Of a stretch of 33,938 nucleotides of DNA, positions 11 to 32,213 are shown piece after piece; the first letter of the stretch is position 1, and each line of letters begins with the position of its first letter. The translations under genes were made by a program, and so were the position numbers. Below the pieces are notes generated by a model, which was not told where the DNA came from, did no database searches, and was given only the letters and a program-made list of their open reading frames with translations. Origin of the DNA: a bacterium (GTDB taxonomy: Bacteria > Bacillota > Clostridia > Oscillospirales > Acutalibacteraceae); the NCBI GenBank assembly GCA_963625735.1, contig CAVFUV010000001.1:1-33938 (forward strand), read 5' to 3'.

Positions 11-226
11 AGTGTGGAGTGTGGAGAGTGGAGTGTGGAGTGGATTGTTGCTGTCAGATTGTTCACAAAAATCGAAAAACCGTGAAAGATTCTTAGCACC
101 AAAAGTATCACTGAAGCCGTGTTACAGTGGCATTTTTTTGTTATGTATTCTTATTCGCAGTTCTCAGATTCCTACGATTTAACCCCGGCGAAGCAACTCC
201 ACTCTCCACACTCCACTCTCCACTCT
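11..226. repeat. inverted GTGGAGW heptad arms (11-43 and 197-226) flanking ~150 bp
   Basis: AGTGTGGAGTGTGGAGAGTGGAGTGTGGAGTGG faces ACTCCACTCTCCACACTCCACTCTCCACTC. A GCGAAGC box lies at 188-194. Confidence 0.8.
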
Positions 227-243
227 TGTGCAGCTGCACCTTA

Positions 244-283
244 TTAAAAAAAGGGTCGGACACGGGTTTGCCGCATCCGACCG
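244..283 (-). terminator. intrinsic terminator of the YhhN gene
   Basis: Hairpin GGTCGGA...TCCGACC followed by a T-run on the minus strand. Confidence 0.8.
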
Positions 284-293
284 ATTGTGTTTT

Positions 294-983
294 TTAATCC
301 ATAAGGTAAGCCGTCAGTGCTATAAGATACTGCCCGGCGTAATATGTAACGTGATTCAGAATGAAATTTATCGGAGTGTTCTTGCCCTCGCCGAAGTACA
401 TCGGGGACAGAATCAAATCCGAAATGAGGAACAGCACACCGCCCGCGGCGAACACGATAAACGCCGTCTTGCCGGTGAGAATCGCACACATAACGGCTGT
501 TGCCGCCATAAAGGAAAGTATGAAGCCGTAGATTGTTACAATCACTTTATACTCGCCGAAGTTCTGCTTCATGGGCTTTTCGAGAAGCAGATTGCCGACC
601 GCCACTATTATGCCGACGGCAAGCGGAATAAGCAGGTATTTATGCTCAAGCTCCGCCATTTTTGCCATTGCGGGGATATAGAACAGATGACCGAATCCGA
701 ACGCCATGAAGCCCGCATACAGATACTGCTTTTTGTCGTCGGGATAAACCCACTTCTGATCGAGATAAATATCACCGAGCATTCCGAAAACAAGACCGGC
801 GATAATAAACAGACCGTACTTGTAATGCTCCGAGTTTTTCATGACACCCTGAATTGCAGTCATGATAAAGAATATGCTGACAAAGTTTTTAAGGAACACG
901 CCTTCGACACTTCGCTTGTCCTTGCACCTGATTATGAACAGTACAAGAAATACAGCGCCCATAGCAACGGGAAGATAGACCAT
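294..983 (-). CDS. YhhN-family (lysoplasmalogenase-like) integral membrane protein
   Basis: ORF 294..1043 is a multi-TM protein with MLGDIYLD and LISDLIL motifs typical of YhhN. The codon at 1043 is TTG. I prefer the ATG at 983, preceded by a GAGGTGG SD. Confidence 0.75.
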   Translation of the reverse strand: MVYLPVAMGAVFLVLFIIRCKDKRSVEGVFLKNFVSIFFIMTAIQGVMKNSEHYKYGLFIIAGLVFGMLGDIYLDQKWVYPDDKKQYLYAGFMAFGFGHLFYIPAMAKMAELEHKYLLIPLAVGIIVAVGNLLLEKPMKQNFGEYKVIVTIYGFILSFMAATAVMCAILTGKTAFIVFAAGGVLFLISDLILSPMYFGEGKNTPINFILNHVTYYAGQYLIALTAYLMD

Positions 984-1014
984 ATTTACCACCTCAACAA
1001 TATTTTGTATACAT

Positions 1015-1043
1015 ATTTTAACAAAAGTATGCCTGTATTTCAA
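1015..1043 (-). promoter_or_regulatory. candidate sigma-A promoter of the YhhN gene
   Basis: TTGAAA-17 nt-TAAAAT on the minus strand. Confidence 0.5.
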
Positions 1044-1120
1044 GAGGTTTTATGCAAAAACAATAAAAGCATTTTTGATTTGAAAAATGTTATACTTGAC
1101 AAAATTCACAGTATCCCATA

Positions 1121-1160
1121 AAAAAACCGCCCGATCACCCAAAATCAGCGGTTTTTTCTT
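1121..1160. terminator. bidirectional-type hairpin terminator (module A)
   Basis: AAAAAACCGC-loop-GCGGTTTTTT. Confidence 0.65.
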
Positions 1161-2650: not shown

Positions 2651-2941
2651 GAATTAACAGTTAAGAATGAGTGACCGGTGGTCAGTATCCAGTGGCCGGT
2701 GACTAAGGAAGTCCTGCGGACTTGGATTATATAGCTTCGCCTCTGTTCAGAGTGGAGTGTAAAATGCGGAGTGTGGAGTCAGCTTCGCAAAAGGTGAGTT
2801 TATCGCCGGATTGCAACTGCATTGCGAAATTTGGGGCATTCAGCCGCTCGGAAGTGACATTCCTTTTAAGCAGAGCCAAACCTGATTTTCTTTGCCGGGG
2901 TGCCGGGGCAGCGGCCCGTCGCCGGCGCTCCTCGCCTCACC
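2651..2941 (+). repeat. composite modular intergenic element (heptads - stem-loop - box - GTGGAGT heptads - long GC-rich tail)
   Basis: Modules in order are GAATTAACAGTTAAGAAT, GTGACCGGTGGTCAGTATCCAGTGGCCGGTGAC, stem-loop AAGTCC-TGC-GGACTT (2709-2723), GGATTATATAGCTTCGC, GTGGAGT heptads, a second GCTTCGC, a module shared with 19888-19948, and a GC-rich tail. Confidence 0.85.
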
Positions 2942-5892: not shown

Positions 5893-5916
5893 TCATTTGG
5901 CATAAATAAAATTCAA

Positions 5917-5952
5917 GCGGATGCGTAGAGATACGCATCCGCGGTTTTTTTA
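5917..5952 (+). terminator. intrinsic terminator of the metallophosphoesterase gene
   Basis: GCGGATGCGT-AGAGAT-ACGCATCCGC followed by T8. Confidence 0.9.
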
Positions 5953-6075
5953 TTTTTTAACGTGATATAAAGGTAAAATAATGTTAAAAAAGGGGGTTTG
6001 CCGGTGAGTGTGGAAGCGAGCGGCTCAGCCCGCCGGTACGGCAAAGCCCCGCAGTGACACGAAAATCTGCCTTCT

Positions 6076-6138
6076 GCGAAGCTTATAATCCAAGGCACTC
6101 CGTGCCTTCCGAAATTGTTAATTGTTAATTGTTAATTG
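6076..6138 (-). repeat. half element: AATTAAC heptads - stem-loop - GGATTATAAGCTTCGC
   Basis: Plus strand reads GCGAAGCTTATAATCC, then AAGGCAC-TCC-GTGCCTT, then CCGAAA, then (TTGTTAA)x3. Confidence 0.9.
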
Positions 6139-8236
6139 AAAATTTTACCGTACTGTCTGCCGGCGCATTGACAACCTCAAACCTATCATGCCAGTAAATC
6201 CCGAGGTTCTTTTTAAGCTCATCGCCGTCCTCAACAAGCACCTTTACATTGGCGTCGAACTGTGTTGTGTTCTGAATATACAGAACGCCGTCCCTAAGCC
6301 ATGCGTTTACATGATCGCATACGCTTACAATGTCACGTGACGGCACGACATACACACCCGGCATATCGGTCCATGTGAGCATCATGGCGACATGCGGCCA
6401 CGAGCAGGCACCGAAAATGTTTCCGCCGACATTCTTTTCGCCCTCCCAGTCGGAGGTGTTGACACGTTCGCATATTTCGGAATCCTTAAGCGGCACGCCC
6501 TTGCTTGTCATAACAGGCCTTTCGGGGTACGACACCGTCTGCGGCATAAAGTGGGCAATCTGTCTTGCCAGGTCAAGATATCTCTTGTCACCTGTCGCAC
6601 GGAATATTTTGATAAATGAAATGGGGCTTGATGTGCAAAGACCCGGTGCGGAGTGCTTGTTCTGAACATTTGCCCATACAGAACCGCAGGCCTTCACATC
6701 CAGTCTGCCCATCTCGCTTGTTTTCGGAAATTCATAATCATACGACTCAACCCAGCTTGCGACCTGATTTGCGGAGTCGATCATGCATTTAAGCCATCTG
6801 TCGCCGTCTGTTTCGTACAGATTTACAAAACTCTCCATAAGTGCCGCAGAGCTTTCGGAGTCGGGAGCCTGCAGTATTTCGCCGGGACCGCCTGTTGTAA
6901 CACCCTTAAGCGTTGCGTTCTTATAGAAGAACTCGCCTATCTCCCTCGCCGTGATAAGATACTTTTCGTCACCCGTCACATTGTACGCTGCACAGAGTCC
7001 CGCGGGAGCCATTGCACCGCTTGTGGAGTTGCCGACAACGATTTCACCTGTTTCGGTGTTGATAAACTGACCGAGCTGACCGTATCTGTTCCACAGAGTG
7101 ACAACCGCATCCGCCGCCGCTTTCGCGCTTTCACGGATTTTTTCGGGAACATCAATACCCATTTTTTCAAGTGCGCGGATTTCTCTGTAAAGGAAATATA
7201 TCATATCAACGTGCTTTCTTATAAGCACCATGTTGTATTTTCCGTCAAAGCTTGAGAATGCGTCGTCATAGACCTTGCCGTTGCTGTCGGCACAGCCGTA
7301 GAACCATCCGAGTTTGCTCTGCTCACGCGCGGCAAAGAGAAGTGTCTTTATGCTTCTCTCTTTTGTAAGAGCATCGCCCTCGCAGATTCCCGCAAGGCTT
7401 GTCATGCCGCCGCCGACCCAGCCCGCCTGCCATACACCGAAATGTGATGTTCTGCGGCCGTCCTGCGCGTCAAGAGTGTACATTTCAAGATTTTCGAGAT
7501 AATGCGTATCGTTAATCTGCTTTTCGGCAAGCTCCCAGAAGTGCGAAAACGGAAGATTGGCATGTGCCGTCTCGCTCGAAAAGTCATATCTTCTCGCAAA
7601 GAACTGTGAGAAAAGCTCCGGAATATCTTCGCAGTCGGATACATATATCTTGTGCGGAATTGTCGTAACATCGCCGTTTTTTACACTTAAGGGCTTATCC
7701 ATTGAAGGATTTTCTCTGCATGAGGGTACACCGTCATACCAGTGATAGACAAGACGTCTTTTTGAGGGTGCTCTTAAGCGGATTATAAGGTTGTCGCCGA
7801 GCTGATCAAGCGACACGCCGTGATTTAAGCCGTGGTCGCCCTGATTAAAGAACAGCATGAACGACTTTTTCTCTTTTTTGTTAAGTATGCATACGCACGG
7901 AGTTGACATATCACCGGTTGTGACATCCATAAAGGAGTCGCCGGTCTTGTTAAGGCGAGGCACCTGTGTCATGCGTGTCGGAACATCGACACCGAGCTCA
8001 TCCTCGTGGAACATTGGTGCGTAGTGACGGGGAACAGCCTCAAAACGGTTGCCGTCATAGGCACACGCCGGAATCATTATGTATGTGTCGGCAATCGGTG
8101 CGTTGAGTTTGAAATCAACCCAATAGCCTGCGTCGTCATTGTCGCAAAGTGCGGTAAAACGGGTCTCTTCCTCATTGAAAACAACACGAGTGCCGTTTTC
8201 GGGTCCGGAAAAACCCCTTGTAATTTCATAGGACAT
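6125..8236 (-). CDS. large cytoplasmic protein, possibly (alpha/alpha)6-barrel glycoside-hydrolase-like; function uncertain
   Basis: Long ORF with no signal peptide. I prefer the ATG at 8236 (MSYEIT...) after an AGGAGTGAG SD over 8275. The last codons and the TAA lie inside the heptad array at 6115-6138. Confidence 0.7.
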   Translation of the reverse strand: MSYEITRGFSGPENGTRVVFNEEETRFTALCDNDDAGYWVDFKLNAPIADTYIMIPACAYDGNRFEAVPRHYAPMFHEDELGVDVPTRMTQVPRLNKTGDSFMDVTTGDMSTPCVCILNKKEKKSFMLFFNQGDHGLNHGVSLDQLGDNLIIRLRAPSKRRLVYHWYDGVPSCRENPSMDKPLSVKNGDVTTIPHKIYVSDCEDIPELFSQFFARRYDFSSETAHANLPFSHFWELAEKQINDTHYLENLEMYTLDAQDGRRTSHFGVWQAGWVGGGMTSLAGICEGDALTKERSIKTLLFAAREQSKLGWFYGCADSNGKVYDDAFSSFDGKYNMVLIRKHVDMIYFLYREIRALEKMGIDVPEKIRESAKAAADAVVTLWNRYGQLGQFINTETGEIVVGNSTSGAMAPAGLCAAYNVTGDEKYLITAREIGEFFYKNATLKGVTTGGPGEILQAPDSESSAALMESFVNLYETDGDRWLKCMIDSANQVASWVESYDYEFPKTSEMGRLDVKACGSVWANVQNKHSAPGLCTSSPISFIKIFRATGDKRYLDLARQIAHFMPQTVSYPERPVMTSKGVPLKDSEICERVNTSDWEGEKNVGGNIFGACSWPHVAMMLTWTDMPGVYVVPSRDIVSVCDHVNAWLRDGVLYIQNTTQFDANVKVLVEDGDELKKNLGIYWHDRFEVVNAPADSTVKFSINN

Positions 8237-8283
8237 TTTTTCTCTCACTCCTAATCTTATCATCTTGCGGTACATTTTTTAAT

Positions 8284-8462
8284 TCATAATGTAGAATGCA
8301 TAATGCATAATTTCGGAAGACACTGCGTGTCTTGAATTATATTGCTTCGCTAATATGGAACTATTTTTTTAACACTAATTCACATTTCGCGAAGCTGTAT
8401 AAATTCAAAACGCTTTAGCGTTTTCCTTCATTATGCATTCTTAATTCTGCATTCTACATTTT
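8284..8462. repeat. complete palindromic element (two inverted half elements)
   Basis: Left half is GCATAAT/GTAGAAT heptads, AAGACAC-TGC-GTGTCTT and AATTATATTGCTTCGC. The centre is about 37 nt. Right half is GCGAAGCTGTATAAATT, AAAACGC-TTTA-GCGTTTT and the reverse-complement heptads. Confidence 0.9.
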
Positions 8463-9561: not shown

Positions 9562-9646
9562 TTTTTCGGATCTCCTTAAATTATATGTGAAAATTATTAT
9601 ACCCTTGCCAAAGCGTTTTTTCAATAGCAAATCGAAGAGACGAAAT

Positions 9647-9755
9647 AAATTAACAATTAACAATTAATAATTTACAATTTCGGAAGACACTGCGTGTCTT
9701 GTATTGAAAAAGCTTCGCAAAACAACTCCACACTCCACTCTCCACACTCCACACT
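9647..9755 (+). repeat. half element followed by ACTCCAC heptads
   Basis: Modules in order are TTAACAA-type heptads, CGGAAGACAC-TGC-GTGTCTTG, TATTGAAAAAGCTTCGC and (ACTCCAC)x4. Confidence 0.9.
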
Positions 9756-9816: not shown

Positions 9817-9845
9817 TTGACAAACCGTCAAAAATGTGCTATGAT
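9817..9845 (+). promoter_or_regulatory. candidate promoter of ylxM-ffh
   Basis: TTGACA-17 nt-TATGAT, with TGc as an extended -10. Confidence 0.6.
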
Positions 9846-12221: not shown

Positions 12222-12252
12222 GGGCACTCCGCTTTATGCGGGGGCCTTTTTC
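12222..12252 (+). terminator. probable terminator after the KH-protein gene
   Basis: Imperfect GGGCACTCCGC/GCGGGGGCC hairpin followed by T5. Confidence 0.5.
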
Positions 12253-12430
12253 AATTAGCAATTAGCAGTTAGCAATTGGCAATGGAAGGGACCGGAGGTC
12301 AGGGACCGGAGGTCAGGGGCCGGGGGCCGGGGGCTTCGCAAGAGGTTAACTGAAAAAATTGTCTTGTCGGGTTCGAGACACTTTTTAAATTAACAATTGG
12401 CAATGAGAAAAAGTGACCGGTATCCGTTTG
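12252..12430 (+). repeat. element: AGCAATT heptads - (GGGACCGGAGGTCA)x2 - GGGGCCG heptads - GCTTCGCAAGAGG - hairpin - partial second unit
   Basis: Read directly from the sequence. It lies between the KH-protein terminator and the flippase 3' fragment. Confidence 0.85.
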
Positions 12431-12544: not shown

Positions 12545-12583
12545 AATGTTTTTTGTATCGCGTTAATGGGGAGGACAAAGATA

Positions 12584-13456
12584 ATGGTTGATAATTTTAC
12601 ATTCAAAGACAGCTATAATATGGATGACCTTGTTGAGATTATCGCAATCCTTCGTGCTCCCGGCGGTTGTCCGTGGGATGCCGAGCAGACGCATGAAAGC
12701 ATAAAGAAGAATTTTATCGAAGAGACATACGAAGTAATTGAGGCAATAAACAAAAAAAGTCCCGAAATGCTCCGTGAAGAGCTGGGTGATGTTCTTCTTC
12801 AGGTTGTTCTTCATACACAGATGGCGAGCGAAAACAACGCGTTTACATTTGACGATGTATGTGACGAGATATGCAAAAAGCTTATAATCCGTCATCCGCA
12901 TGTATTCGGTGATGTTACCGTCAGCGACACGGGCGAGGTGCTTAAAAACTGGGACGCGATAAAAATGCAGACCAAGAAGCAGAAAAGCGTGACGGAGAGC
13001 ATAGATTCCATTCCTCGTGAGCTGCCGTCACTTATGCGCGCACAGAAGGTTCAGCATAAGGCCGCAAAGGCGGGCTTTGACTGGGACAATATCGGCGGCG
13101 CACTCGACAAGGTGAGCGAGGAAGCAAGCGAAGTCAAAGAGGCTCTTGCCGAAAATGACAAGGAGCATGTGTCCGAAGAAATCGGCGATCTGCTTTTCGC
13201 CTGCGTGAATGTCTGCCGTTTTGCCGATACGGACGGTGAGGAAGCGCTTACAGCCGCAACGGATAAATTCGCCGCTCGCTTTGCGATAGTCGAACGCCTT
13301 GCAAAAGAACGTGGGATAGATATGAAGACAGCAACTATTGAGACGCTGGATGAGATGTGGGACGAAGCGAAGAAGCAATTGGCAATGGAAAAGGGGTCAG
13401 GTTCCGGGGGCCGGGGGTCGGGGAAGACACTGCGTGCCTTGGATTGTATGGCTTAG
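12584..13456 (+). CDS. mazG: nucleoside triphosphate pyrophosphohydrolase MazG, with repeat-derived C-terminal extension
   Basis: Two tandem MazG domains (EETYEVIEAI, ELGDVLLQV, EEASEVKEAL, EIGDLLFACV). The ATG at 12584 follows a GGGGAGG SD. The last 27 codons are read from the intergenic repeat element. Confidence 0.9.
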   Translation: MVDNFTFKDSYNMDDLVEIIAILRAPGGCPWDAEQTHESIKKNFIEETYEVIEAINKKSPEMLREELGDVLLQVVLHTQMASENNAFTFDDVCDEICKKLIIRHPHVFGDVTVSDTGEVLKNWDAIKMQTKKQKSVTESIDSIPRELPSLMRAQKVQHKAAKAGFDWDNIGGALDKVSEEASEVKEALAENDKEHVSEEIGDLLFACVNVCRFADTDGEEALTAATDKFAARFAIVERLAKERGIDMKTATIETLDEMWDEAKKQLAMEKGSGSGGRGSGKTLRALDCMA

Positions 13457-13501
13457 CTTTTTGCGAAGCCGACTCCACACTCCACACTCCACACTCCACA
13501 C
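13374..13501 (+). repeat. element copy 1 (AGCAATT/GGGGNCG heptads - stem-loop - box hairpin - ACTCCAC x4), overlapping the mazG 3' end
   Basis: Modules in order are AGCAATTGGCAATGG, GGGGTCAGGTTCCGGGGGCCGGGGGTCGGGG, AAGACAC-TGC-GTGCCTT, GGATTGTATGGCTTAGCTTTTTGCGAAGCC and ACTCCAC heptads. Confidence 0.9.
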
Positions 13502-13712
13502 TTTTAAACAGCTGACCGCTTAATTAAATTTGACAAAACGTCTTATGGTATTAGCAATCAGCAAATGGAAAAAGGGGTCGGGGTCGGGCCGGGAAAACAC
13601 TGCATACCTTGGATTATATGGCTTAGCTTTTTGCGAAGCCGACTCCACACTCCACACTCCACACTTTTAAACAGCTGACCGCTTAATTAAATTTGACAAA
13701 ACGCCTTATGGC
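13448..13712 (+). repeat. ~165-bp tandem duplication spanning element 3' half plus the hup upstream region
   Basis: The segment ATGGCTTAGCTTTTTGCGAAGCCG(ACTCCAC)nACTTTTAAACAGCTGACCGCTTAATTAAATTTGACAAAACGYCTTATGG occurs twice (13448-13548 and 13618-13711). The copies differ by one heptad and one SNP. Confidence 0.9.
13551..13665 (+). repeat. element copy 2 (decayed stem-loop, ACTCCAC x3)
   Basis: Same module order as copy 1. The stem-loop is degenerate (AAAACAC-TGC-ATACCTT). Confidence 0.85.
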
Positions 13713-14073: not shown

Positions 14074-14146
14074 TGCAGAATTAAGAATGCATAATGCATA
14101 ATGTCGGAAGTCCGCAAGACTTCCGAAATTGTTAATTGTTAATTAT
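14074..14146. repeat. minimal element: GCATAAT heptads - stem-loop GGAAGTC-CGCAA-GACTTCC - TTGTTAA heptads
   Basis: Read directly from the sequence, immediately after the hup terminator. Confidence 0.85.
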
Positions 14147-16134: not shown

Positions 16135-16256
16135 CAATTAGCAATGAGTGGAAGTGACCGGTATCCGGTGGGCAGTATCCGGTGGCTGAGGAAGGCACAC
16201 AGTGCCTTGGATTTATAAAGCTTCGCAAAAGGTAAGCTAATGATGAGCTTCGCAAA
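16114..16256 (+). repeat. element: AATTAGN heptads - GACCGGTATCCGGTGG-type repeats - stem-loop - GGATTTATAAAGCTTCGC - second GCTTCGC
   Basis: Stem-loop is AAGGCAC-ACA-GTGCCTT at 16192-16208. The element overlaps the ATPase stop codon. Confidence 0.9.
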
Positions 16257-18745: not shown

Positions 18746-19445
18746 TGTTAAAATCTCCTTCCGTATTTCCGCCTGTTTTAATATAGAGTGCACCGTATTT
18801 TGAAAAGCTCGATTTGTATATCTTGAGGTCCGACAGCTTTTTCGCAATTTCAAGCGGAATTACCGTCGGCGTTTTTATCTCGAGAATGACTTTTCCGGGG
18901 CAAAGCTCAATACCGTACGGCGGTGACTCAAGCGACAAATCGTAATTTCTGCCCCGCACATTCATGTCAAACGTTATGCGGACAAGGTTGTCAAGAGTGA
19001 CATATGACCGTCTGTCGCATGAAATGTACGCTGTCGGAATAAGCGTGCCGTAGTGAGTTAAAAAGCTGTCTATCTCTTTTTCAATCTGCGTATCCTTGCG
19101 TGGACACGTGCCGTCAAGCCACTGCTCGGCCTGCTTTTCGGTCGCCGTAACACGCCGTTTATAGACAACGGAATTGTACTTTTTCTTAAGCTCCACAAAA
19201 ACCGTCGAGTTGTCGTCAACCGTTTTGTATGCCCTGACACGCAGCTTTTCTTTGTATGCGGGCCCTTCAAGGGAGCGTGTTATCAGCCGTCTGTCGGGAG
19301 TGTCATAATAGAGACTCCGCACCGTGCCTTCCGGGAAAACGTCGGGCTTTATCATCTCTTTAAGGCCTGACAGAAGCTCAAGATATTGACTTTCGGTTAT
19401 CAGAAACTTTATCTCGTTTCTTTCAAATCTGTCGGTGATGTTCAT
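18729..19445 (-). CDS. VTC-domain (polyphosphate polymerase domain) protein
   Basis: The pattern ERNEIKFLI...SLYYDTPD...KLRVRAY...VFVELKKK is typical of the VTC/CYTH-like domain. Confidence 0.8.
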   Translation of the reverse strand: MNITDRFERNEIKFLITESQYLELLSGLKEMIKPDVFPEGTVRSLYYDTPDRRLITRSLEGPAYKEKLRVRAYKTVDDNSTVFVELKKKYNSVVYKRRVTATEKQAEQWLDGTCPRKDTQIEKEIDSFLTHYGTLIPTAYISCDRRSYVTLDNLVRITFDMNVRGRNYDLSLESPPYGIELCPGKVILEIKTPTVIPLEIAKKLSDLKIYKSSFSKYGALYIKTGGNTEGDFNNVINF

Positions 19446-19550
19446 TGGTTTTACACCGCTTTCTCTGTTTGATGAGATAATACGATGAGGACTTTAATCG
19501 GAATTTAAAAAGATTACAGAGTTGTAATATTTTTAAGGTTTGTGAAAAAA

Positions 19551-20070
19551 GGGCGAGCGAAGCGAGCCTGAAGCCCGAGCCGACAGGCGAGGGCATGTCG
19601 CGAGGAGCGACAGCGACGAGCGAAGCCGAGCGAAGCGAGGCAAAGCCCGAGGAGGCGGCGTAAGCCGACGACGAGGGCACGGGCGGCGAGGAGAGCGACA
19701 GCGTCGACGAGCCGCAGGACGCGACGACGAACACCTGCCAACGGCAGGCGTAAGGAGGAGTGTCTCCCCGAGCGAAGCAGATTTGTGAGGGGCTGCCCGT
19801 GGCTGCCCTCATAAATCTGCTGAGCGGAGGGTGCCGTCCGGAATGTGGCTTCCGGCAGTACGCCATACGAAAGGCATGTCATTTTACTTGAAAGGAATGT
19901 CACTCCCGGGCGGCAAAGCGACCCGGATTTCGCAGCAAGCTTGCAATCAAGCAAAAAGCTTGCCTCTTGCGTTAGCTTACAATCCAAGTCCGCAGGACTT
20001 CCTTGTTTTCCCGGCCCCCGACCCCCGGTCCCCGGCCCCTGTCCAATTGCTAACTGCTAATTGCTGATTA
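19551..20070 (-). repeat. largest element copy: AGCAATT + GGGGNCG heptads - stem-loop - box - structured module - T-depleted GCGAAGC-rich tract
   Basis: On the plus strand, heptads lie at 20010-20068, stem-loop AAGTCC-GCA-GGACTT at 19986-20000, hairpins at 19777-19820 and 19935-19963, and the GCGARGC-rich tract at 19551-19740. Confidence 0.8.
19777..19820. other. 15-bp-stem hairpin (GCAGATTTGTGAGGG ... CCCTCATAAATCTGC) in the 716-bp spacer
   Basis: Direct complementarity with one G-T pair. The 14-nt loop contains the GGCTGCC direct repeat. Confidence 0.7.
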
Positions 20071-22414: not shown

Positions 22415-22443
22415 ATAATACAGCTTGCTTTAGAATATATCAA
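22415..22443 (-). promoter_or_regulatory. candidate promoter of the flippase gene
   Basis: TTGATA-17 nt-TATTAT on the minus strand, abutting the phased array. Confidence 0.5.
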
Positions 22444-22622
22444 AGAACTTTCAAAACTTTTAAAATGATTTTAAAAGTTTCAAAGAGATTTTCAAAGTTT
22501 CAAAGAGATTTTCAAAGTTTCAAACAAATTTTCAAAAGTTTCAAAGAGATTTTAAGAGTTTCAAACACTTTTTCAAAACTTTCAAACGATTTTCAGAAGT
22601 TTTCAAATCATTTCAAAACTTA
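22441..22622. repeat. ~17 tandem ~10-bp units (TTTCAAAGNN / TTTTCAAAG), helically phased T/A-tract array
   Basis: TTCAAA cores recur every 9-11 bp from 22450 to 22610. The array lies directly upstream of the flippase -35 and begins at the helicase stop codon. Confidence 0.9.
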
Positions 22623-24728
22623 TTCATCCGAAATGAGATTTGCCTTTACAAGATGCGACACGCTCAGTTTCCGTGTTTTGCCATCCTCAAACTCGGCGAC
22701 TATCGTGTCCCCGGTGCGTGCGGTCACGGTGAAACTGCCGAGCTTGCGGTGGTTGAATTTTCCGCCGACAGTTACGCTGTCATTCGAGAAAAATCCGCTC
22801 TCTCCGCCTGCGTCCCATACGGAAAATGTCGCAAGCTTCAGCGGTGTGCCGATATCGTATTTTTTCGCCGCGTTCAGAGCCGCTTCGTGCCGCTTTTCTA
22901 TCTTGCGGCGAAGCGTCTTGCCGAAAACCTCATCCGAAAAGCTCGTTTCATAGCTTTTTGACGTATATGTAAAAATATTAAGATTGTTTTTCGCGCGTGT
23001 CATGGCGACATAGAAAAGCCGCCGCTCCTCCTCCGCCTGCGTTTCGGACTGCTCGCCCGTCATATTCTCTCGATTATCAGCGGGAAGAGTACCGTCAAAG
23101 GCGTTTATAATATATACGGTGTCGTATTCCGTGCCCTTTGCACCGTGAATTGTGGACAGCACAGCGCCTTTTTCTTTTCTGCCGTCACCGACCGCCGTTT
23201 TAAGTGTCCCGAGATGCTCAAGAAAATCCGGTACCGTCTTGTCATCCTTTGCGAGAATACTCAGAATTTCCGTTTTGTTGATATCCGTCCCCTGAGTATA
23301 CCCGGCGTACCCCGGCAGAAATGCCGCAAGAAAAACCCCGGTGGAAACATTCGATTTTTTTATTCTGTCAAGCGTCTGCTCGATTTTTCCGCATTTTTCA
23401 AGTGCGGGCTGAGACAGAACCCTGTTTCGCTTAAGACAGTCAAACACGCTCTTTTTCTTTTTCACAGCTTCATTCACGGCGACAACCGCGTCGTTTTTTG
23501 AGATGTACAGCCCCAATTTATAATAAAGCATCATAAAAGCGTCGCTGTCATATCTGTTATACGCGAGCTTCAGAATATTGCCGATATCCGTGACCGTTTT
23601 GGACGTAAAAAACGTACAGTCGTTTTCACGGCTCATAAACGGTATACCGCGTTTTATAAGCATATCGATAAGCGGCAAAGCGCACTCGTTGTTTCTGTAA
23701 AGCACAGCCGTATCGGAGTCGGCGTCTTTCAGAATACCGCACAGTGCCGTATACTGGTCTTCAAGCGTCGCAACGGAAATTTCCTTTACCTGCCCGTGGG
23801 CGGTTCTTGAAGCGAACATATTCTTCTGTATTCTCTGCGTGTTTTTGGAGATAAATCCGTCCGCAGCCTTTACTATTTCGGGAACGCTTCTGAAATTTTC
23901 TTCGCTTTTGAGAATTACGGCATTCTTGTATTTTTCGTTGAATGTCAGCAGAAATTCGGGGTATGCCCCTCTGAAGCCGTAAATACTCTGGTCTTCATCA
24001 CCGACCATGAAAATATTGCCGCTCCCCGCCAGAAGCCTTATTATGCAGTGTTGGATTTTGGATGTATCCTGCGCTTCATCCACGCATATATACTTAAATC
24101 TGTCGTGATATTTTTTTCTGAGTGACGGATAGTTTTTAAGCATCGACAAAGCGTAAACAAGCTGATCGTCATAATCCATCAGCCGCTGCTCACGCATATA
24201 GTCCGTATACGCCTTATATATTTTTGAAATTGCCGCTCCCCCGCCGTCAAGTTTTTTTATTTCTTCATCGGTCAGCATGCTGTTTTTTATACAGGTGATA
24301 CTGCGGCGTATTTCGGAAATTGTCGTCTCCGACGGATATTCGTCGTTAAGCTTTAGATAAATTGCGCCGATTGCGGAAACGGTCTTGCGCTCGTCCGTCT
24401 GAAGTGAAAAGGGAATACGCCCGGTCATATTCGAAAAATCGTTGATTATTTTCTGGGCTATGCCGTTAATCGTGCGAAACTCGGGCGGTTCAAGCTCCGG
24501 GAACATTGCGTGAAAGCGATGTCTCATCTCGTTTGCCGCCGCCACCGTATAGGTAAGCACCAACACACTGTCGGACGGTATCCCCCGGTTTTCTATCATC
24601 TCGCCAAGGCGTGCGATAAGCACCGTTGTCTTGCCGCTCCCCGGCACCGCAAGCAGCAAAACAGCGCCGTCGATATTTTCGACAGCGGCAGACTGCTGAG
24701 GGTTCAGTTGACGACTTACATTATACAT
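22620..24728 (-). CDS. UvrD/Rep/PcrA-family ATP-dependent DNA helicase with extra C-terminal domain
   Basis: Motifs are LNPQQSAAV, Walker A AVPGSGKTT, DEAQD and TIHGAKGTEYD. Confidence 0.88.
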   Translation of the reverse strand: MYNVSRQLNPQQSAAVENIDGAVLLLAVPGSGKTTVLIARLGEMIENRGIPSDSVLVLTYTVAAANEMRHRFHAMFPELEPPEFRTINGIAQKIINDFSNMTGRIPFSLQTDERKTVSAIGAIYLKLNDEYPSETTISEIRRSITCIKNSMLTDEEIKKLDGGGAAISKIYKAYTDYMREQRLMDYDDQLVYALSMLKNYPSLRKKYHDRFKYICVDEAQDTSKIQHCIIRLLAGSGNIFMVGDEDQSIYGFRGAYPEFLLTFNEKYKNAVILKSEENFRSVPEIVKAADGFISKNTQRIQKNMFASRTAHGQVKEISVATLEDQYTALCGILKDADSDTAVLYRNNECALPLIDMLIKRGIPFMSRENDCTFFTSKTVTDIGNILKLAYNRYDSDAFMMLYYKLGLYISKNDAVVAVNEAVKKKKSVFDCLKRNRVLSQPALEKCGKIEQTLDRIKKSNVSTGVFLAAFLPGYAGYTQGTDINKTEILSILAKDDKTVPDFLEHLGTLKTAVGDGRKEKGAVLSTIHGAKGTEYDTVYIINAFDGTLPADNRENMTGEQSETQAEEERRLFYVAMTRAKNNLNIFTYTSKSYETSFSDEVFGKTLRRKIEKRHEAALNAAKKYDIGTPLKLATFSVWDAGGESGFFSNDSVTVGGKFNHRKLGSFTVTARTGDTIVAEFEDGKTRKLSVSHLVKANLISDE

Positions 24729-24745: not shown

Positions 24746-24951
24746 GTTAGCGGTTAGCAAGGAGCAGTGTCAATGTAGAATGTAGAATGCAGAATGCAGA
24801 ATTTCGGAAGACACTATGTGTCTTGAATTATATAGCTTCGCAATCATAAAAACATTTTTCTTACAAATAAACTAACATTCAGTGGAGCTTTATAATCCAA
24901 AACGCCTTGGCGTTTTCCTTCACTGCTCCTTGCTCCTTGCTCCTTGCTCAC
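24746..24951. repeat. palindromic element with GCAAGGAGCAG outer arms and ATGTAGA/ATGCAGA inner heptads
   Basis: Arms are 24757-24769 (GCAAGGAGCAGTG) and 24921-24951 (CACTGCTCCTTGC...). Stem-loops are AAGACAC-TAT-GTGTCTT and AAAACGC-CTTG-GCGTTTT. Boxes are GAATTATATAGCTTCGC and GGAGCTTTATAATCC. Confidence 0.9.
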
Positions 24952-28344: not shown

Positions 28345-28544
28345 TAAAAAGTGAGCAAGGAGCAGGGAGCAGGGAGCAGTTAGGCATAGTGTGGAGCTTT
28401 ACAAAGTGTGGAGTGTGGAGAGTGGAGTGTGGAGTTACAGCTTCGCGAACGGTAAATGCAGTAAAAGAGCTTTAATGTAAGCGGAGCTTTATAATCCAAA
28501 ACGCTTTGGCGTTTTCCTTCATTGTTAATTGTTAATTGTTAATT
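28345..28544. repeat. element: GAGCAGG heptads - GTGGAGT heptads - GCTTCGCGAA - centre - GGAGCTTTATAATCC - stem-loop - TTGTTAA heptads
   Basis: Read directly from the sequence. Stem-loop is AAAACGC-TTTG-GCGTTTT at 28498-28515. Confidence 0.9.
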
Positions 28545-28621: not shown

Positions 28622-30073
28622 TCAGCCGGAAACGTATCTTTGATTTTTGCTTTTAGGCTTATCCGGAATTGTCATTTTCAGACGGCCGTCAAGAATAAGG
28701 GGACTTACATACTGCTGCATTGCATAAAATGTTGTTTTAACACCGAGAAAATCCGCAATTTCCTGCCGTGAACGAGGCACAGTGCAAAATGCAATAAGTC
28801 TCTCTGCTTCGTCATCGCTTTCGATATCGTTATTTTGATTTTTGCTACCGTTATAAAATGTCACAACAAACTCGTTGCGGCGGTTTTCAAATACAGGTTC
28901 GGGGAGTCCGTATTCCTTCATGGCGTTTCGCATTGTGGGAATACCCGAATATCGATGCTCCGCAGATGTCAGCGTTTCTGCTATTACCGCAAGTGCGGGA
29001 TTCCTGAGATCCGGCTTTGCGATGCCGAGCTGTTCAATACTCATTCTGCCGTAAAGACCGCCGGGAGAGTGTATTTCCACACGGTCAGAGAAAAAATCTA
29101 TCTGTACGGGAGTGCCCTCGGTATAAATGCTGTAATCTCTGTGCATAACGGCGTTTAATATCGCTTCTCTTAATGCATCTATCGGATATTCGGTTATATC
29201 GGTTCTTTTTGCCGTTTCCCTGCTTATTATCGTTCTTGTTTTCATATTGCGGCGGCAGAAATTAAGTGCTTCCTCAACCATCTCGGGAATTGTGCCGTCA
29301 ATTCGTTTGTTATCGACAAACCGTGCGCTGTCGTTATCGGTATCCCCTATCTGCGTTCCGGGGACAACAATCGCGGTTATGCAAAGCTGCGGAAAAAATC
29401 CCTGAGGATATATTCCGAAATTAAGGACCGCCGCCAGAGTGGGTACGCCGTCACGTGTTATATTCAGAAGCTCAAGAGCCTGTTTTTCGGGAAGTCTTGA
29501 AAATCCCGGTCTGTCGACACGCATTCCGGCAATATATGCGTCCACCTTGTTTTTGTCGAGCAGATTTATGTCTGCTCTTTCAACGGGGCGTTCATCGTCA
29601 TGCAGATGCTTTCTGAATGCTTCAAAACTGTAAAGCTCATAGTCGGTCATCGGCAAATCCGCATCGCCGACCCTTATATATGAACCCTTTGTTCTGCCTG
29701 CACCTCTGTAATAACACGGGCGTTCGGAAATGTCAATCGCCGGAATTTCGGCGGCACATACCGTTTTGCCGTTATAATCGGTCAAAGTGAACACCGCTCT
29801 TACAACAGGCTCCATCTGCAGACACTGCTCGGTAACCTTTTTCTGCAGGTCCTGAGGATTATAGACACCGACAACCTCATAGCCGGCATTTTCATCAATG
29901 CCGAATATTATCACACCGCCGCTGTCCTGATTTGAAAAGCTCGACAATGTATCATACAGCTTTTTCGGACAGTCTGTGTGTGCGGTCTTAAGCTCAACAG
30001 TCTGTTCCTCCGCCTTCTGTCGGCAGATTCTGTTTATAAGTTCGATAAGATCTTCGGTTAACAAGCGGATCAC
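28622..30073 (-). CDS. AlbA_2/Schlafen-like DNA-binding domain + HATPase_c_4-like domain + C-terminal wHTH protein (often annotated as a RecG-like ATP-dependent DNA helicase)
   Basis: The N-terminus E..ELK......CPKKLYDTLSSFSNQDSGGVIIFGIDE is typical of AlbA_2. GTG start at 30073 with a short SD spacing. Confidence 0.75.
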   Translation of the reverse strand: MIRLLTEDLIELINRICRQKAEEQTVELKTAHTDCPKKLYDTLSSFSNQDSGGVIIFGIDENAGYEVVGVYNPQDLQKKVTEQCLQMEPVVRAVFTLTDYNGKTVCAAEIPAIDISERPCYYRGAGRTKGSYIRVGDADLPMTDYELYSFEAFRKHLHDDERPVERADINLLDKNKVDAYIAGMRVDRPGFSRLPEKQALELLNITRDGVPTLAAVLNFGIYPQGFFPQLCITAIVVPGTQIGDTDNDSARFVDNKRIDGTIPEMVEEALNFCRRNMKTRTIISRETAKRTDITEYPIDALREAILNAVMHRDYSIYTEGTPVQIDFFSDRVEIHSPGGLYGRMSIEQLGIAKPDLRNPALAVIAETLTSAEHRYSGIPTMRNAMKEYGLPEPVFENRRNEFVVTFYNGSKNQNNDIESDDEAERLIAFCTVPRSRQEIADFLGVKTTFYAMQQYVSPLILDGRLKMTIPDKPKSKNQRYVSG

Positions 30074-30094
30074 CGTCCTTCAAATCGATTTTAG

Positions 30095-30290
30095 CAAAAT
30101 TATTTTGTTAAATCAAGTATTTCCGCAAAATCTGTTTGTTAATTTTTTGCGGAAATTTTGCAGATTTCAAATTTCAGCAAAATCATTTTGCAGATTTTTT
30201 GTTAATTCGCAATTTTTGCAAAGTCACTTTGCAGAAATTTTGCGGAAATTTTGTTAATTTAAGATTTTTGCAAAATTACCGTCAGTTTTC
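30095..30290. repeat. ~10-11-bp phased array of TTTTGC(A/G)GA / TTTTGTTAAT units with internal inverted repeats
   Basis: TTTTG cores lie at about 30104, 30134, 30146, 30157, 30186, 30197, 30214, 30228, 30238, 30249 and 30266. TTCCGCAAAA (30121) and TTTTGCGGAA (30146) form a perfect 10-bp inverted repeat. Confidence 0.85.
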
Positions 30291-30362
30291 AAACCTTTCC
30301 ACACCGCTTTCTAAAACCGACAACCGCAATAACTCCGCGATAAAGCGAAAAACTTTCCCCTT

Positions 30363-30460
30363 GCGAAGCTTTATAATGCAAGACACGCAGTGTCTTCCTC
30401 GGTGCCCCGGCCCCCGACCCCCGGTCCCCGGCCCCTTTTCATTGCTAATTGCCAATTGCC
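30363..30460 (-). repeat. element: GCAATTN heptads - GGGGNCG heptads - stem-loop - box, overlapping the DUF4091 gene 3' end
   Basis: Plus strand reads GCGAAGCTTTATAAT, then AAGACAC-GCA-GTGTCTT, then CCCCGGN heptads, then ATTGCYA heptads. Confidence 0.9.
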
Positions 30461-32049
30461 TCAACAAGCTCTCGTCTGAACTCCTCAAACTTCTCAGCCT
30501 CAAGCGGATAAGACGTAAATGTAATATCGCCAAGCGTGCGTTTCAGCAGTTCTTCCGCCGCCGGTCTGCCCGCTTTCTTTTCGAGAGCACGCAACGCTGC
30601 ATAATCACACACTCCGGCATAAAACGCCTGTTCACGGATTGTCGTCATAGGCTCGCCGTTTTCGCCGGGGTAGACTATAAAACCGTCGCCCGCCGGGAAA
30701 TTGCCGTCCGCCGTTGTATTTTCGAACGGATTGACCGCACGCTTTGACAGCTGAGCGTACCAGAAATTAAAGCCCCAGTGCAGAAAGCCCTTGCAGTTAT
30801 ATTTCCATAACAGTACGCCTATTATACGCATTTTTATGAGCGGCAAAAACAGAAATCTGTTCGGGTACTCGTTTTCGTACGGACCGCAGCAGTAGTATGT
30901 CCACAGCTCGTCCACCTTGCCCCTAAACGACTCAATCGCCGACTCGCTCGGAACGGGAATATCCACAAGTCCCTCTTCGTAAAATTCATAATCTGAAAGT
31001 GCGTCTATATGCTTAAACGCCGGGAAATATTCCTTCATAATCGCCGAAATACAGCGGTAGTGGCGTATGGAGCTTTTGCTCGGTTCGTCGGACGCGTGAA
31101 TGCGGCAGATGTCCGTAATGCCGAGAGAATCCGTGTGTTCCTTAAGGCTCTGCCCGAACTGCCGCAGAAAAGATTTGTAGCCCTGCGACAGAGAGTAGTT
31201 ATCCCAGCCGAAAATCCGGCGGTCACCGGTTGAAGTCCGTGCTATGATTTTGGGCGCGAATTTTGCTCCCCACTGCGTAAACAGATGAGAAAGCTCAAAG
31301 TATTTCACGCCGCAACGAAGGCACATATCAACCCAGCGGTCAAAATTCGTGAAGTCAAACGCATAACCGTACTGTATTCTTTTTACCCCCACAAGCTGAA
31401 CGGTGGGACGCTCCGCACCGACCTCGGTGTCAAGCGGAGGTGTAAAGAGCGGCGTCAGAATCATATTTATACCGTGTGCTACGGCGTTTCTGACATAGTT
31501 TTCGACAATTCGCCAATATTCTTCACTGAAGGCGTCAATCTTATACCATGTCATAAGACAGTCGGTGTGAAACCAGTTTGTGCATATAAGCGTCTGCTCG
31601 GGCAAGGCGGCGGCGGACACATGAACATTGACCTCGGCTGAATTTTCACCGAGTGTAAATATAACGGTATGCTCACCGGGGATATTCCCCTCAAGCTCAA
31701 TTCTTACGCACAAAAGATTGTCTTTTTTAAGTGTAACGGTATCACCCTCAACGGGGCACATTAAATCGGGATAAAAGCCCTCTCTACCGTTATTGAGCAT
31801 GGTGCAGTTTTTTACCGAGTTTTCACGGGACGTATCCGAGTAAATCTCTTTCACGGTATACGCCTTATATTCAAGCGGACATCTGATTTCAAACGGCAGA
31901 ACGCAGTCTTCATCCGCCGACACGGCAAACTGCACCGCCCCCTTCTCCCCGCACAGCAGCGGCAGAAAATCGGACTTCTTATAGGCGGATATATCCGAAT
32001 TTGAAAAAACTTTTTCAAGAGAAGAAACAGGGACTATTTCTGTATGCAT
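30445..32049 (-). CDS. DUF4091-like protein (putative glycoside-hydrolase-like), function uncertain
   Basis: I prefer the ATG at 32049 after a GGAGG SD. It is cytoplasmic. The last four codons and the TAG lie inside the GCAATTN heptad array. Confidence 0.7.
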   Translation of the reverse strand: MHTEIVPVSSLEKVFSNSDISAYKKSDFLPLLCGEKGAVQFAVSADEDCVLPFEIRCPLEYKAYTVKEIYSDTSRENSVKNCTMLNNGREGFYPDLMCPVEGDTVTLKKDNLLCVRIELEGNIPGEHTVIFTLGENSAEVNVHVSAAALPEQTLICTNWFHTDCLMTWYKIDAFSEEYWRIVENYVRNAVAHGINMILTPLFTPPLDTEVGAERPTVQLVGVKRIQYGYAFDFTNFDRWVDMCLRCGVKYFELSHLFTQWGAKFAPKIIARTSTGDRRIFGWDNYSLSQGYKSFLRQFGQSLKEHTDSLGITDICRIHASDEPSKSSIRHYRCISAIMKEYFPAFKHIDALSDYEFYEEGLVDIPVPSESAIESFRGKVDELWTYYCCGPYENEYPNRFLFLPLIKMRIIGVLLWKYNCKGFLHWGFNFWYAQLSKRAVNPFENTTADGNFPAGDGFIVYPGENGEPMTTIREQAFYAGVCDYAALRALEKKAGRPAAEELLKRTLGDITFTSYPLEAEKFEEFRRELVEAIGN

Positions 32050-32103
32050 TATATTTACCTCCGATATATGTATCGACAAAAAAGTTGTGAAAAACCGGGA
32101 AAA

Positions 32104-32213
32104 GTGTGGAGTGTGGAAAGTGGAGTGTGGAGTTGGCTACGCAAAAGGCGAAGCTATATAATTCAAAACGCTTCAGCGTTTTCCTCAGCCCCCGGCCCCT
32201 GCCCCCGGGCCCT
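32104..32213 (-). repeat. element: GTGGAGT heptads - GGCTACGCAAAAGGCGAAGC hairpin - TATATAATT - stem-loop - GCCCCNG heptads
   Basis: Stem-loop is AAAACGC-TTCA-GCGTTTT at 32164-32181. The element lies in a divergent promoter region. Confidence 0.9.

Follow-up and report, generated by a model that had tools for sequence, protein, structure and literature searches.

Short extragenic stem-loops of the repetitive extragenic palindromic (REP) kind, together with the bacterial interspersed mosaic elements (BIMEs) and REP doublets forming hairpins (REPINs), are well studied in Proteobacteria. REP super-families are defined by a conserved unpaired tetranucleotide, GTAG or CGTC, and the survey that describes them does not mention Firmicutes (PMC3733652). 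Intergenic heptanucleotide repeats are also on record: TAACTGA heptamers occur in Beggiatoaceae, Cyanobacteria and Bacteroidetes (PMC4679880), GGGAATC heptamers in Xanthomonas and GGGGAYT in Nostoc, and the heptanucleotide excess of some bacteria has gone unexplained since it was reported in 2007 (PMC4692102). The stretch of DNA analysed here, contig CAVFUV010000001.1 of an Acutalibacteraceae assembly (GCA_963625735.1), contains intergenic elements that join both phenomena, with heptad arrays, their families in a fixed order, set directly against the outside of a co-varying hairpin. The whole stretch, 33,938 nt long, is called the window below. The family to which these elements belong is real, dense and apparently undescribed.

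A Dense Family of Modular Spacer Elements

Exactly 14 full cores, each a hairpin followed by a box, are present in the window according to both a profile hidden Markov model (HMM), built from these 14 cores, and a covariance model, which was run with all filters off and gave no other credible match. A first-pass annotation had listed 15 copies, whose spans cover 2,630 of the 33,938 bp (7.7%). Twelve of them hold a full core, whereas those at 11-226, 12252-12430 and 14074-14146 have arrays together with GCTTCGC or a hairpin; the copies at 13374-13501 and 13551-13665, which had been counted separately, are a tandem duplication that is single in a strain 99.2% identical to the window. In a wider sample of 553 kb, made up of the window and related loci from the host species and a sister species, the HMM found 245 matches, 222 of them unique cores, and just one of the 222 falls inside a predicted gene.

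The period of the arrays is as characteristic as the core. In the window, 26 period-7 rows were detected by Tandem Repeats Finder (TRF) at or adjoining the listed copies, outside conserved coding sequence, in addition to a 14-nt array, GGGACCGGAGGTCA, at 12287-12323. Arrays of at least three copies in the 553 kb number 299 for period 7, 6 for period 6, 1 for period 8 and 16 for period 14, against 0 in shuffled sequence. The box RATTATAYAGCTTCGC has nine window matches with at most two mismatches (0.05 expected), and GCTTCGC has 30 (7.2 expected). The annotation had described a dense intergenic family with one conserved module order, 7-nt arrays that change in sequence and keep their period, a GC stem-loop of 6-8 bp and a conserved box, and this description has stood up well.

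Could the modules be products of short-read metagenome assembly, as the annotation had cautioned? Many cores lie at contig ends in metagenome-assembled genomes (MAGs), and array copy numbers derived from short reads are uncertain. Nevertheless, the identical architecture was assembled from several samples with differing contig-name styles (k141_, k123_, NODE_, Spades_, scaffold_), at the same loci, co-linear with the window and at 94-99% identity to it. Because it was recovered independently in separate samples, the architecture is not an assembly artefact, and that explanation keeps virtually no probability.

The annotation could not name the family, and neither the databases nor the literature searched provided a match. 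Rfam gave none for the whole window at gathering score, the sole match at E ≤0.1 being a chance miRNA outside the elements, and none at E ≤1 for the longest element part (about 430 bp, see below). No tRNA or tmRNA genes were found in the window. An exact 20-mer scan of viral contigs returned 0 matches, a scan of JGI metagenomes returned one chance match on a contig of 32% GC without the hairpin, and blastn of phages and plasmids with a full dimer returned none. Literature searches with the heptad and box strings retrieved coincidental primers only, and nothing specific was found on REP, REPIN or MITEs (miniature transposable elements with inverted repeats) in Clostridia or Ruminococcaceae.

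Heptad Families, Module Order and Dimers

Five heptad families cover 401 of the 414 period-7 arrays: A, AATNNAN (AATTAAC, AATTAGC, AATGCAT, AATGYAG and others); K, AAGGAGC; G, GGGGCCG; W, GTGGYCA; and S, ACTCCAC. The earlier list of heptads was sound as far as it went but incomplete, as GTGACCGGTGGTCAGTATCCAGTGG... is likewise a heptad array, of the fifth family GTGGYCA. The order of modules is strict. K is outermost, followed by A, then by G or W beside the hairpin, then by the core and, optionally, by a second hairpin with S. Arrays within 45 bp 5' of the core are in forward orientation at 151 of 210 cores and reversed at 10. There is usually no array on the 3' side, where the exceptions are the A array of the next unit (18 cases) or S (13 cases); S arrays come after a second small hairpin, GGCTTNGC-TTTT(T)-GCGAAGCC. 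The box-distal variable region starts with GCTTCGC-AAGAGGTGGGCTTTTGG... and extends to as much as a GC-rich non-coding stretch of about 430 bp (19545-19969).

Units are combined in several ways. Adjacent core pairs (n = 65) comprise 28 in tandem, 30 inverted box to box and 7 heptad to heptad. The two long palindromes noted in the window, at 8284-8462 and 24746-24951, have proved to be genuine dimers joined box to box, their centres measuring 38 and 41 bp, and a centre of 38-41 bp occurs in 19 of the 30 box-to-box pairs. None of the 22 dimers whose centre measures 36-47 bp pairs a stem class with itself, and class AACGC is one of the two in 16 of them; the chance of finding no same-class dimer under random pairing is about 0.001 by simple arithmetic. 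The centres are AT-rich and constant in length, with sequences unrelated between dimers. A palindromic character of the centres themselves was rejected (self-complementarity 0.405, against 0.422 in shuffles); whole doublets are 73-84% self-complementary.

Other repeat types were considered and rejected. The tandem units (for example at the related locus L001, period 75) are parted by heptad arrays and not by the unique spacers of a clustered regularly interspaced short palindromic repeat (CRISPR) array, Cas genes not having been searched for. Both CRISPR arrays and integron attC sites were set aside on architecture and on gene context, that is, housekeeping genes in mixed orientation.

The Core Hairpin and Its Box

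The core is 36-44 nt long and consists of a 7-bp hairpin, ATTATA(T/A)A and GCTTCGC, with the consensus GG-AAGNNNN-loop-NNNNCTT-GG/GA-ATTATA(T/A)A-GCTTCGC. Its stems fall into four discrete, internally complementary classes, GACAC/GTGTC, GGCAC/GTGCC, AGTCC/GGACT and AACGC/GCGTT. Pairing is maintained through sequence change: among 66 distinct cores 93.7% of the stem cells are paired, four of the seven pairs have changed on both sides, and doubly changed cells number 62, compared with 15 in shuffles, while slid registers drop to 18-48% paired. Stems are perfect in 172 of 189 full cores. The mismatches are nearly all transitions and are unequally distributed on the reference strand, where A.C occurs 19 times and G.T 6 times, in counts that include orthologous copies. 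Such an excess places the tolerated wobble on the opposite strand, the one that bears GCGNAGC, a hint, not proof, that one specific strand folds, be it as RNA or as single-stranded DNA.

The complement of the box, GCGAAGC, belongs to a known structural motif. GCGNAGC and GCGNNAGC are the consensus of an "extraordinarily stable" DNA mini-hairpin, natural examples of which are found at the origins of phages G4, St-1 and alpha3, at plasmid ssiA priming sites and at the promoters of the N4 virion polymerase (PMC13037366). Of 197 full-length cores, 184 (93%) have a box complement that conforms to GCGNAGC, with variation at N (A 158, G 13, T 13), and two more conform to GCGNNAGC; the variants GCGTTAGC and GCGTCAGC are also present. 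The likeness has its bounds: the known mini-hairpins are phage and plasmid priming sites and N4 promoters rather than a dispersed chromosomal repeat, and in the present element the mini-hairpin is a candidate structure. The GCTTCGC of the element can also pair with a downstream GCGAAGC as an ordinary stem.

Strain Variation and Host Range

An identical Ffh protein is encoded on contigs of several ENA metagenome assemblies and in the NCBI MAG GCA_963637735.1; the latter is 99.2% identical to the window and the other contigs 94-96%. When a genome collection was scanned with the box 20-mer, 70 of the 72 loci came from two GTDB species representatives, CAZTWO01 ("uncultured Ruminococcus sp.") and CAVFPQ01 ("Acutalibacteraceae bacterium"), and the other two were chance matches in genomes of other phyla. 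CAZTWO01 is treated as the same species because it is 95-99.8% identical to the window and its syntenic strains, and CAVFPQ01, with a nucleotide identity of about 87%, is a sister species. Relatives with Ffh 93, 90, 89 and 86% identical have no cores and none of these heptad arrays in the 21 kb around ffh, and on this sample the family looks restricted to one small clade. The family-free locus of the last of these relatives (L084) contains, at 14957-15097, an inverted pair of unrelated heptad arrays, AAAGTGC/TTGAACT, in a spacer or small open reading frame (ORF).

The parse into modules of the window and six syntenic strains (loci labelled L0xx below) shows the same spacers occupied in all, with differing heptad families, stem classes and unit numbers. 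The sister species likewise has the same spacers occupied by different modules. In the spacer between the GH127 and DUF3048 genes, for instance, the window reads A-H1-38-H4-A, L073 reads K-H2-41-H3-K and L078 reads A-81-H4-A. The alleles differ in heptad copy number (ACTCCAC x4 to x13), in the presence or absence of the long part and in tandem duplication of a unit with its flank (window 13374-13501 and 13551-13665, single in L076); L078 carries two population alleles in tandem. A clean swap of array plus core was seen between strains whose identity across the neighbouring 376 bp is 99%. Core identity between the species (0.85-0.95) is at the within-species level, and all four stem classes share master sequences, which indicates either sequence constraint or continuing homogenisation.

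Compared with the 99.2% identical strain, indel events run at 2.07 per kb in the elements and 0.06 per kb in coding sequence (about 35-fold), and substitutions at 1.6 and 3.6 per kb, respectively. Hypermutation was rejected on this comparison, as only indels are raised. Differences between strains resemble slippage, unequal crossing-over and replacement of alleles or modules rather than insertion into empty sites; neither an empty-site polymorphism, nor a target-site duplication, nor defined termini were seen among the strains compared. A MITE was rejected, allele breakpoints lying within arrays and modules and not at element ends. The MITE-like behaviour suggested by the first-pass annotation was not upheld: no terminal inverted repeats that mark boundaries and no target-site duplication were seen, the centres are not conserved in sequence, and no related insertion sequence (IS) was seen in the roughly 550 kb searched.

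Variation in an array also reaches a coding sequence. The mazG ORF of the window (12566-13456) extends 27 codons into the element, crossing the G-rich heptads and the hairpin before it ends at the TAG of the GGCTTAGC box; other strains have their stop within the AATTAGC array, so that the protein has 270-277 aa instead of 296 aa. Since the position of the stop varies with the array, array variation alters the C-terminus of a housekeeping protein.

Placement Relative to Genes

Of the cases in which an element directly faces a gene end, 136 present the heptad side and 59 the box side. The annotation had placed most copies just after gene 3' ends with the heptads toward the gene. That preference exists, at no more than about 60:40 (the heptads face 82 3' ends and 54 5' ends); a more dependable rule is that the heptads point outward to the gene and the box inward. 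By spacer type, a core is found in 24 of 36 between convergent genes, in 83 of 290 between tandem genes and in 12 of 36 between divergent genes. Where a co-directional spacer holds a single core, the two orientations relative to transcription stand at 31:21. At 62 non-redundant heptad-facing 3' ends, the first array lies a median of 21 nt from the stop codon; this distance is below 25 nt at 32 of these ends, and at 15 the stop codon lies within or touches the array. As about half begin less than 25 nt from a stop codon, the elements are probably transcribed into 3' untranslated regions (UTRs).

It had also been claimed that most of these genes have no other intrinsic terminator. The claim holds in the wider sample, where a crude detector found a terminator-like site before the array at 3 of the 30 3' ends with room for one, but in the window a canonical terminator precedes the element at yhhN, the KH gene, HU and rpmB. 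On the 5' side, a separate promoter-like site lies between the element and each of the DUF3048, ylxM and 32404 genes.

A Probable Mosaic of REP-like Units and Heptad Microsatellites

What maintains elements at the same positions while their content is replaced? They most plausibly form a genus-restricted extragenic mosaic family of REP/BIME type joined to heptanucleotide microsatellites, an explanation that is probable, if well short of secure. The basic unit is the 7-bp-stem hairpin in four interchangeable classes with its AT box and GCTTCGC, and heptad microsatellites lie on its gene-facing side. Its content is quickly reshuffled: slippage changes the heptad copy number and unequal crossing-over duplicates units in tandem, both seen directly as indel and duplication alleles. 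Modules or whole alleles are replaced as well, and the swaps point to homologous or ectopic recombination as the route. The hairpin would be the maintained, constrained feature, and the heptad arrays would be slippage-prone microsatellites, carried along with the unit and locally expanded. By analogy with REPs, a palindromic stem-loop in a 3' UTR may hinder 3' exonucleases whichever way round it lies. Such a modest function for a stem-loop at 3' ends is possible and would fit the preference for 3' ends and convergent spacers.

Several observations sit uneasily with this interpretation. Plain slippage and recombination leave three features unaccounted for: a period that is strictly 7, heptad families in a set order and a dimer centre held at 39-41 bp. 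The six half or full monomer sequences tested fold no better than shuffles (z +0.25 to -1.8), and any effect at the RNA level is likely to be modest because the stem is only 7 bp. In the window, four of the ten 3'-facing elements come after a canonical terminator, and among the 5'-facing ones several are farther upstream than the promoter-like site of the gene itself, so that many copies may not be transcribed. Finally, the defining REP tag, GTAG or CGTC, is missing, and a search of about 550 kb from incomplete genomes, made with a single E. coli query, turned up no ORF resembling a REP-associated tyrosine transposase (RAYT). The family is therefore not filed as a member of the REPs, whose tag definition it fails and for which it has no known RAYT.

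Alternative Explanations

A cassette for the punctuation of transcription would explain the placement in another way. The 3'-facing half would terminate transcription, and the 5'-facing half would be a promoter, a role proposed because the box complement reads GCGAAGCTATATAAT, with hairpin and heptads in the 5' UTR. A perfect TATAAT is present in 125 of 162 cores and points via hairpin and heptads at the flanking gene, dimers between co-directional genes put one half beside each gene, most 3'-facing elements have no other terminator-like site, and the heptads are sometimes about 10-20 nt from a ribosome-binding site (2631-2660), with no space for another promoter. Yet a -35-like hexamer (at least 4 of 6 positions) is found at 16-18 bp spacing in 15%, compared with 15-17% at control spacings, on which ground a sigma-70-type promoter was rejected, and genes beside 5'-facing halves have promoter-like sites outside the element. 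An intrinsic terminator was rejected as well: the stem has 7 bp, there is no U-tract, the tails being GGAUUAUA in one direction and CCGAAAUU in the other, and few copies pass even a lax terminator scan. Elements also come after canonical terminators, and their orientation relative to transcription is near random. Canonical promoter or terminator function is not supported, and punctuation as a whole is an improbable explanation.

It has also been considered that the elements are active non-autonomous mobile elements, similar to REPINs or palindrome-associated transposable elements (PATEs), whose units are copied between spacers by a single-strand DNA enzyme that recognises the hairpin and GCGNAGC; the heptad arrays would be a by-product of enzyme action or of stalling at hairpins. 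The composite of ordered heptads and core recurs at many unrelated loci, which implies that something copies whole composites, although ectopic gene conversion could do so equally well. Cores are near-identical within and between species, the box complement varies mostly at the N of GCGNAGC, mini-hairpins of this consensus and of GCGNNAGC are found at recognition sites of primase and of the N4 polymerase (PMC13037366), the wobble falls on the GCGNAGC-bearing strand, and the dimers of unlike units resemble the left and right ends of transposons. On the other hand, no empty sites were seen among the strains: positions are conserved among them and in the sister species, and content alone changes. 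Single cores lack an orientation bias, and dimer centres lack sequence conservation. The annotation's call for a mobilising enzyme led to none. A phmmer search with one E. coli RayT query gave no match among 2,481 ORFs from about 550 kb, and all-against-all blastp in the same loci found orthologues only and no multi-copy protein family; as these genomes are fragmented and incomplete, the absence of an enzyme is not established. Active mobility is on balance rather doubtful. The same unaccounted features, strict period, fixed heptad order and fixed centre, are the reason for keeping in view a related proposal, in which the hairpin and GCGNAGC are the site of a candidate single-strand DNA enzyme (a non-RAYT transposase, a primase or a template-switching polymerase) that copies units and whose stepwise action or stalling would make the 7-nt arrays. 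This is unlikely; if true, it would be the first REP/RAYT-like system in Firmicutes and would provide a mechanistic handle on the period-7 preference of bacterial intergenic microsatellites.

A purely structural function is less probable again. The elements would then be binding or structural sites at the DNA level, for a nucleoid protein that binds arrays or cruciforms, a topoisomerase or lagging-strand priming, selected for chromosome organisation. The AT-rich centre, fixed at 39-41 bp and variable in sequence, suggests a constraint on box-to-box spacing as in BIME-1, and spacer occupancy conserved across species and the absence of orientation bias are in keeping with such a function. In phages and plasmids, the mini-hairpin motif accompanies sites of priming (PMC13037366). 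No candidate protein was found, however, and the wide diversity of the heptad families is hard to square with a single binding protein. Because the nearest relatives are without elements in the 21 kb around ffh, the function could not be a general requirement, and we regard this explanation as very unlikely.

Elements and Neighbouring Genes in the Window

The window has a GC content of about 47% and strong GGAGG ribosome-binding sites, and its genes include ylxM-ffh-rpsP-KH, mazG, HU, a spoVB/murJ-like gene, a UvrD/PcrA-like helicase, glycoside hydrolases and an Opp-type binding protein. It is part of the chromosome of an uncultured member of the Clostridia. The 15 element loci are listed in Table 1.

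Table 1. Element loci of the window, with their modules, gene context and alleles at the same site in other strains (stem class in brackets after each core).
Positions	Strand	Modules	Placement	Other strains
11..226	.	Partial element, no core: inverted GTGGAGT/ACTCCAC arrays 11-42 and 197-226 around 154 bp; GCGAAGC 188-194; no covariance-model match	Beyond canonical yhhN terminator at 254-282	
2651..2941	+	AATTAAC and GTGGYCA heptads; core 2699-2740 (AGTCC); variable part with GTGGAGT fragments; second GCTTCGC 2782-2788	Heptad side abuts ribosome-binding site of peptidase_S9 gene (1638-2630, minus)	Other heptads and stem classes; two units in tandem in L078
6019..6144	-	Half element: core 6076-6118 (GGCAC); AATTAAC-family heptads 6112-6144; start of GC-rich box-distal module 6019-6075	Heptads overlap stop codon of GH127-like gene (6125-8275, minus)	Tandem-duplicated in L076 and L074; long form in L073 and L074
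8280..8462	.	Dimer: AATGCAT-type heptads 8280-8311; core + 8307-8350 (GACAC); 38-bp AT-rich centre 8351-8388; core - 8389-8434 (AACGC); heptads 8426-8460		AAGGAGC heptads and classes GGCAC/AGTCC in L073 and L074
9647..9755	+	Monomer: AATTAAC heptads 9648-9679; core 9674-9718 (degenerate AT box); ACTCCAC heptads 9725-9755	Divergent DUF3048-ylxM spacer; promoter-like sites of both genes outside, 9596-9624 (minus) and 9817-9845 (plus)	
12252..12430	+	Partial, no full core: AATTAGC heptads 12252-12283; 14-nt and 7-nt G-rich arrays 12287-12334; GCTTCGC 12333-12339; different hairpin 12360-12380; inverted AATTAAC-type heptads	After canonical KH-gene terminator 12227-12243	
13374..13502	+	Complete monomer: A and G heptads; core 13414-13457; second hairpin GGCTTAGC-TTTTT-GCGAAGCC (13447-13470); ACTCCAC x4.4 at 13472-13502		ACTCCAC copies 4 to 13
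13551..13665	+	Slightly diverged tandem copy of the monomer 13374..13502; core 13584-13627		Missing in 99.2% identical L076
14071..14146	.	Minimal palindromic form without box: AATGCAK heptads; hairpin TCGGAAGTC-CGCAA-GACTTCCGA (14104-14126); inverted AATTAAC heptads; folds better than shuffles (z = -3.2)	After HU terminator	Full dimer in L073, L075 and L077
16114..16256	+	AATTAGA/AATTAGC heptads 16115-16145; GTGGYCA heptads; core 16182-16226 (GGCAC); second GCTTCGC 16247-16253	Heptads overlap ATPase_2 stop	
19545..20070	-	Long form: AATTAGC-type and GGGGCCG heptads 20010-20066; core 19975-20010 (AGTCC, degenerate box GCGTTAGC); GC-rich non-coding part of about 430 bp, 19545-19969, with four GCGAAGC on plus strand		Ordinary dimer in L074
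24746..24951	.	Dimer: AAGGAGC and AATGYAG heptads 24746-24802; core + 24798-24841 (GACAC); 41-bp centre; core - 24882-24926 (AACGC); AAGGAGC heptads 24924-24949		
28345..28544	-	AATTAAC heptads 28521-28544; core 28481-28525 (AACGC); variable stretch; GCTTCGC 28440-28446; GTGGAGT heptads 28405-28435; GAGCAGG (AAGGAGC-family) heptads 28353-28379		
30363..30460	-	Half element: AATTGSC heptads 30441-30460; GGGGCCG 30400-30435; core 30363-30406 (GACAC)	Heptads overlap stop of 544-aa gene	
32103..32213	-	Complete monomer: GGGGCCG-type array 32188-32213; core 32148-32192 (AACGC); second hairpin GCTTCGC-CTTTT-GCGTAGC at 32133-32154; ACTCCAC heptads 32103-32133	Downstream gene has own perfect TTGACA-17-TATAAT at 32331-32359	

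The long part at 19545-19969 is a diverged mosaic with related but diverged copies elsewhere. It folds with z = -7.0 on the plus, purine-rich strand and -3.4 on the minus strand. Public gene calls place a 147-aa protein across it (window 19423-19866; L074 14466-14909; L075 14412-14855; L076 18987-19430). This protein was rejected, the ORF being probably spurious because its translation is of low complexity.

Some neighbouring regions differ between strains in gene content. The ATPase_2/DUF234 gene (14731-16134) is present in the window and L076 and not in the other strains. The UvrD-like helicase gene (22620-24728) was seen in the window only, L076 ending before this position; in L073-L077 an SLFN/AlbA_2 gene replaces the helicase, with a spacer of only about 53 bp. 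Both variable regions are bordered by elements. A cassette of an AAA_21 ATPase gene and a 173-aa gene is found in L075 (2981-5732, with HicAB as well) and L078 (3760-5837) between the terminator of the Metallophos gene and the half element adjacent to GH127, a site at which the window (5893-6124) lacks it. In L078, an IS256-type transposase gene (PF00872, 12239-13492) directly follows the AATTAGC array downstream of the KH gene, an insertion that recalls the insertion sequences that target REPs and BIMEs.

Two further repeats of the window are of other types. About 17 copies of a 10-bp AT-rich unit, TTTCAAAGNN, with super-periods of 20, 40 and 61 bp, fill 22440-22621, with the start of the spoVB/murJ-like gene (minus) on one side and the end of the UvrD-like helicase gene on the other. 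Tandem repeats of 41 bp and 11 bp, TTTTGCAGAAA..., which are not of heptad type, lie at 30145-30253 upstream of a 483-aa gene (28622-30073, minus) and may be a regulatory array.

Significance

The family makes up about 8% of the window, is found in two sister species and is absent near ffh (21 kb) in their nearest other relatives. It thereby provides a compact system for comparative work on the origin of these repeats, on their homogenisation and on whether period-7 slippage is nucleated by hairpins. The elements also have practical effects, in the form of broken short-read assemblies, spurious ORF calls and altered protein C-termini (mazG). The narrow host range limits the interest of the family.

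Comparison with Known Systems

Among Firmicutes, the BOX elements of Streptococcus pneumoniae are built from modules of 45-59 bp and are not known to contain heptads. They are likewise modular intergenic repeats with a variable number of internal tandem modules, and are not known to share sequence similarity with the present elements. The nearest known architectural analogues are the short tandemly repeated repetitive (STRR) sequences of cyanobacteria and the small dispersed repeats (SDRs) of Nostoc. Elhai and co-workers reportedly described, in 2008, small Nostoc hairpin elements of 21-27 nt with compensatory changes within heptamer arrays, and Nostoc SDRs reportedly show insertion polymorphism between strains. 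Both there and here, intergenic heptamers are in excess and fall into several families, and the period-7 excess with copy numbers variable between strains found here is of STRR type. The host here is from another phylum (Clostridia), the core is longer (36-44 nt) and has an AT box and GCTTCGC, and no sequence relation to them is known. Arrays of TAACTGA, GGGAATC and GGGGAYT resemble the present ones in being period-7 arrays confined to spacers, often beside gene starts or ends, with copy numbers that vary between close relatives, and G-rich types in both could in principle form quadruplexes. They consist, however, of a single motif without an attached hairpin and box, whereas five families are arranged here in fixed order around a core.

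REPs, BIMEs and REPINs are the closest systems in anatomy. The linker of BIME-1 has a conserved site for integration host factor (IHF), while the dimer centre here is constant in length and not in sequence. Like REPINs (PMC3116915, PMC3337134), the dimers consist of two inverted hairpin units with a short spacer, in near-identical copies confined to spacers between genes; unlike in REPINs, the arms are always of unlike stem classes, the doublet is only partly self-complementary, and neither a RAYT nor an insertion polymorphism was seen in the loci compared. The REP/BIME-like anatomy noticed in the first-pass annotation proved correct, with a short palindrome, alternative complementary stems, inverted unlike dimers and tandem clusters. 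REPs lack outer heptanucleotide arrays, and in place of the GTAG or CGTC tag the unpaired flanks here are GG...GG/GA and ATTATA(T/A)AGCTTCGC; upstream of the GG, the aligned 5' flank is variable (TTTC, TGTC, TGAA, CTAA), TGTC occurring in a subset only. Both REPs/BIMEs and the present elements are short, extragenic, high-copy stem-loops (222 cores in 553 kb, one in a gene) that have stem sub-families and occur as single units, inverted and often unlike dimers, and tandem clusters with flanking DNA. Both lie mostly downstream of genes, at positions that are often conserved while their content varies. In anatomy and behaviour the family is like the REPs and BIMEs of E. coli rather than like new machinery.

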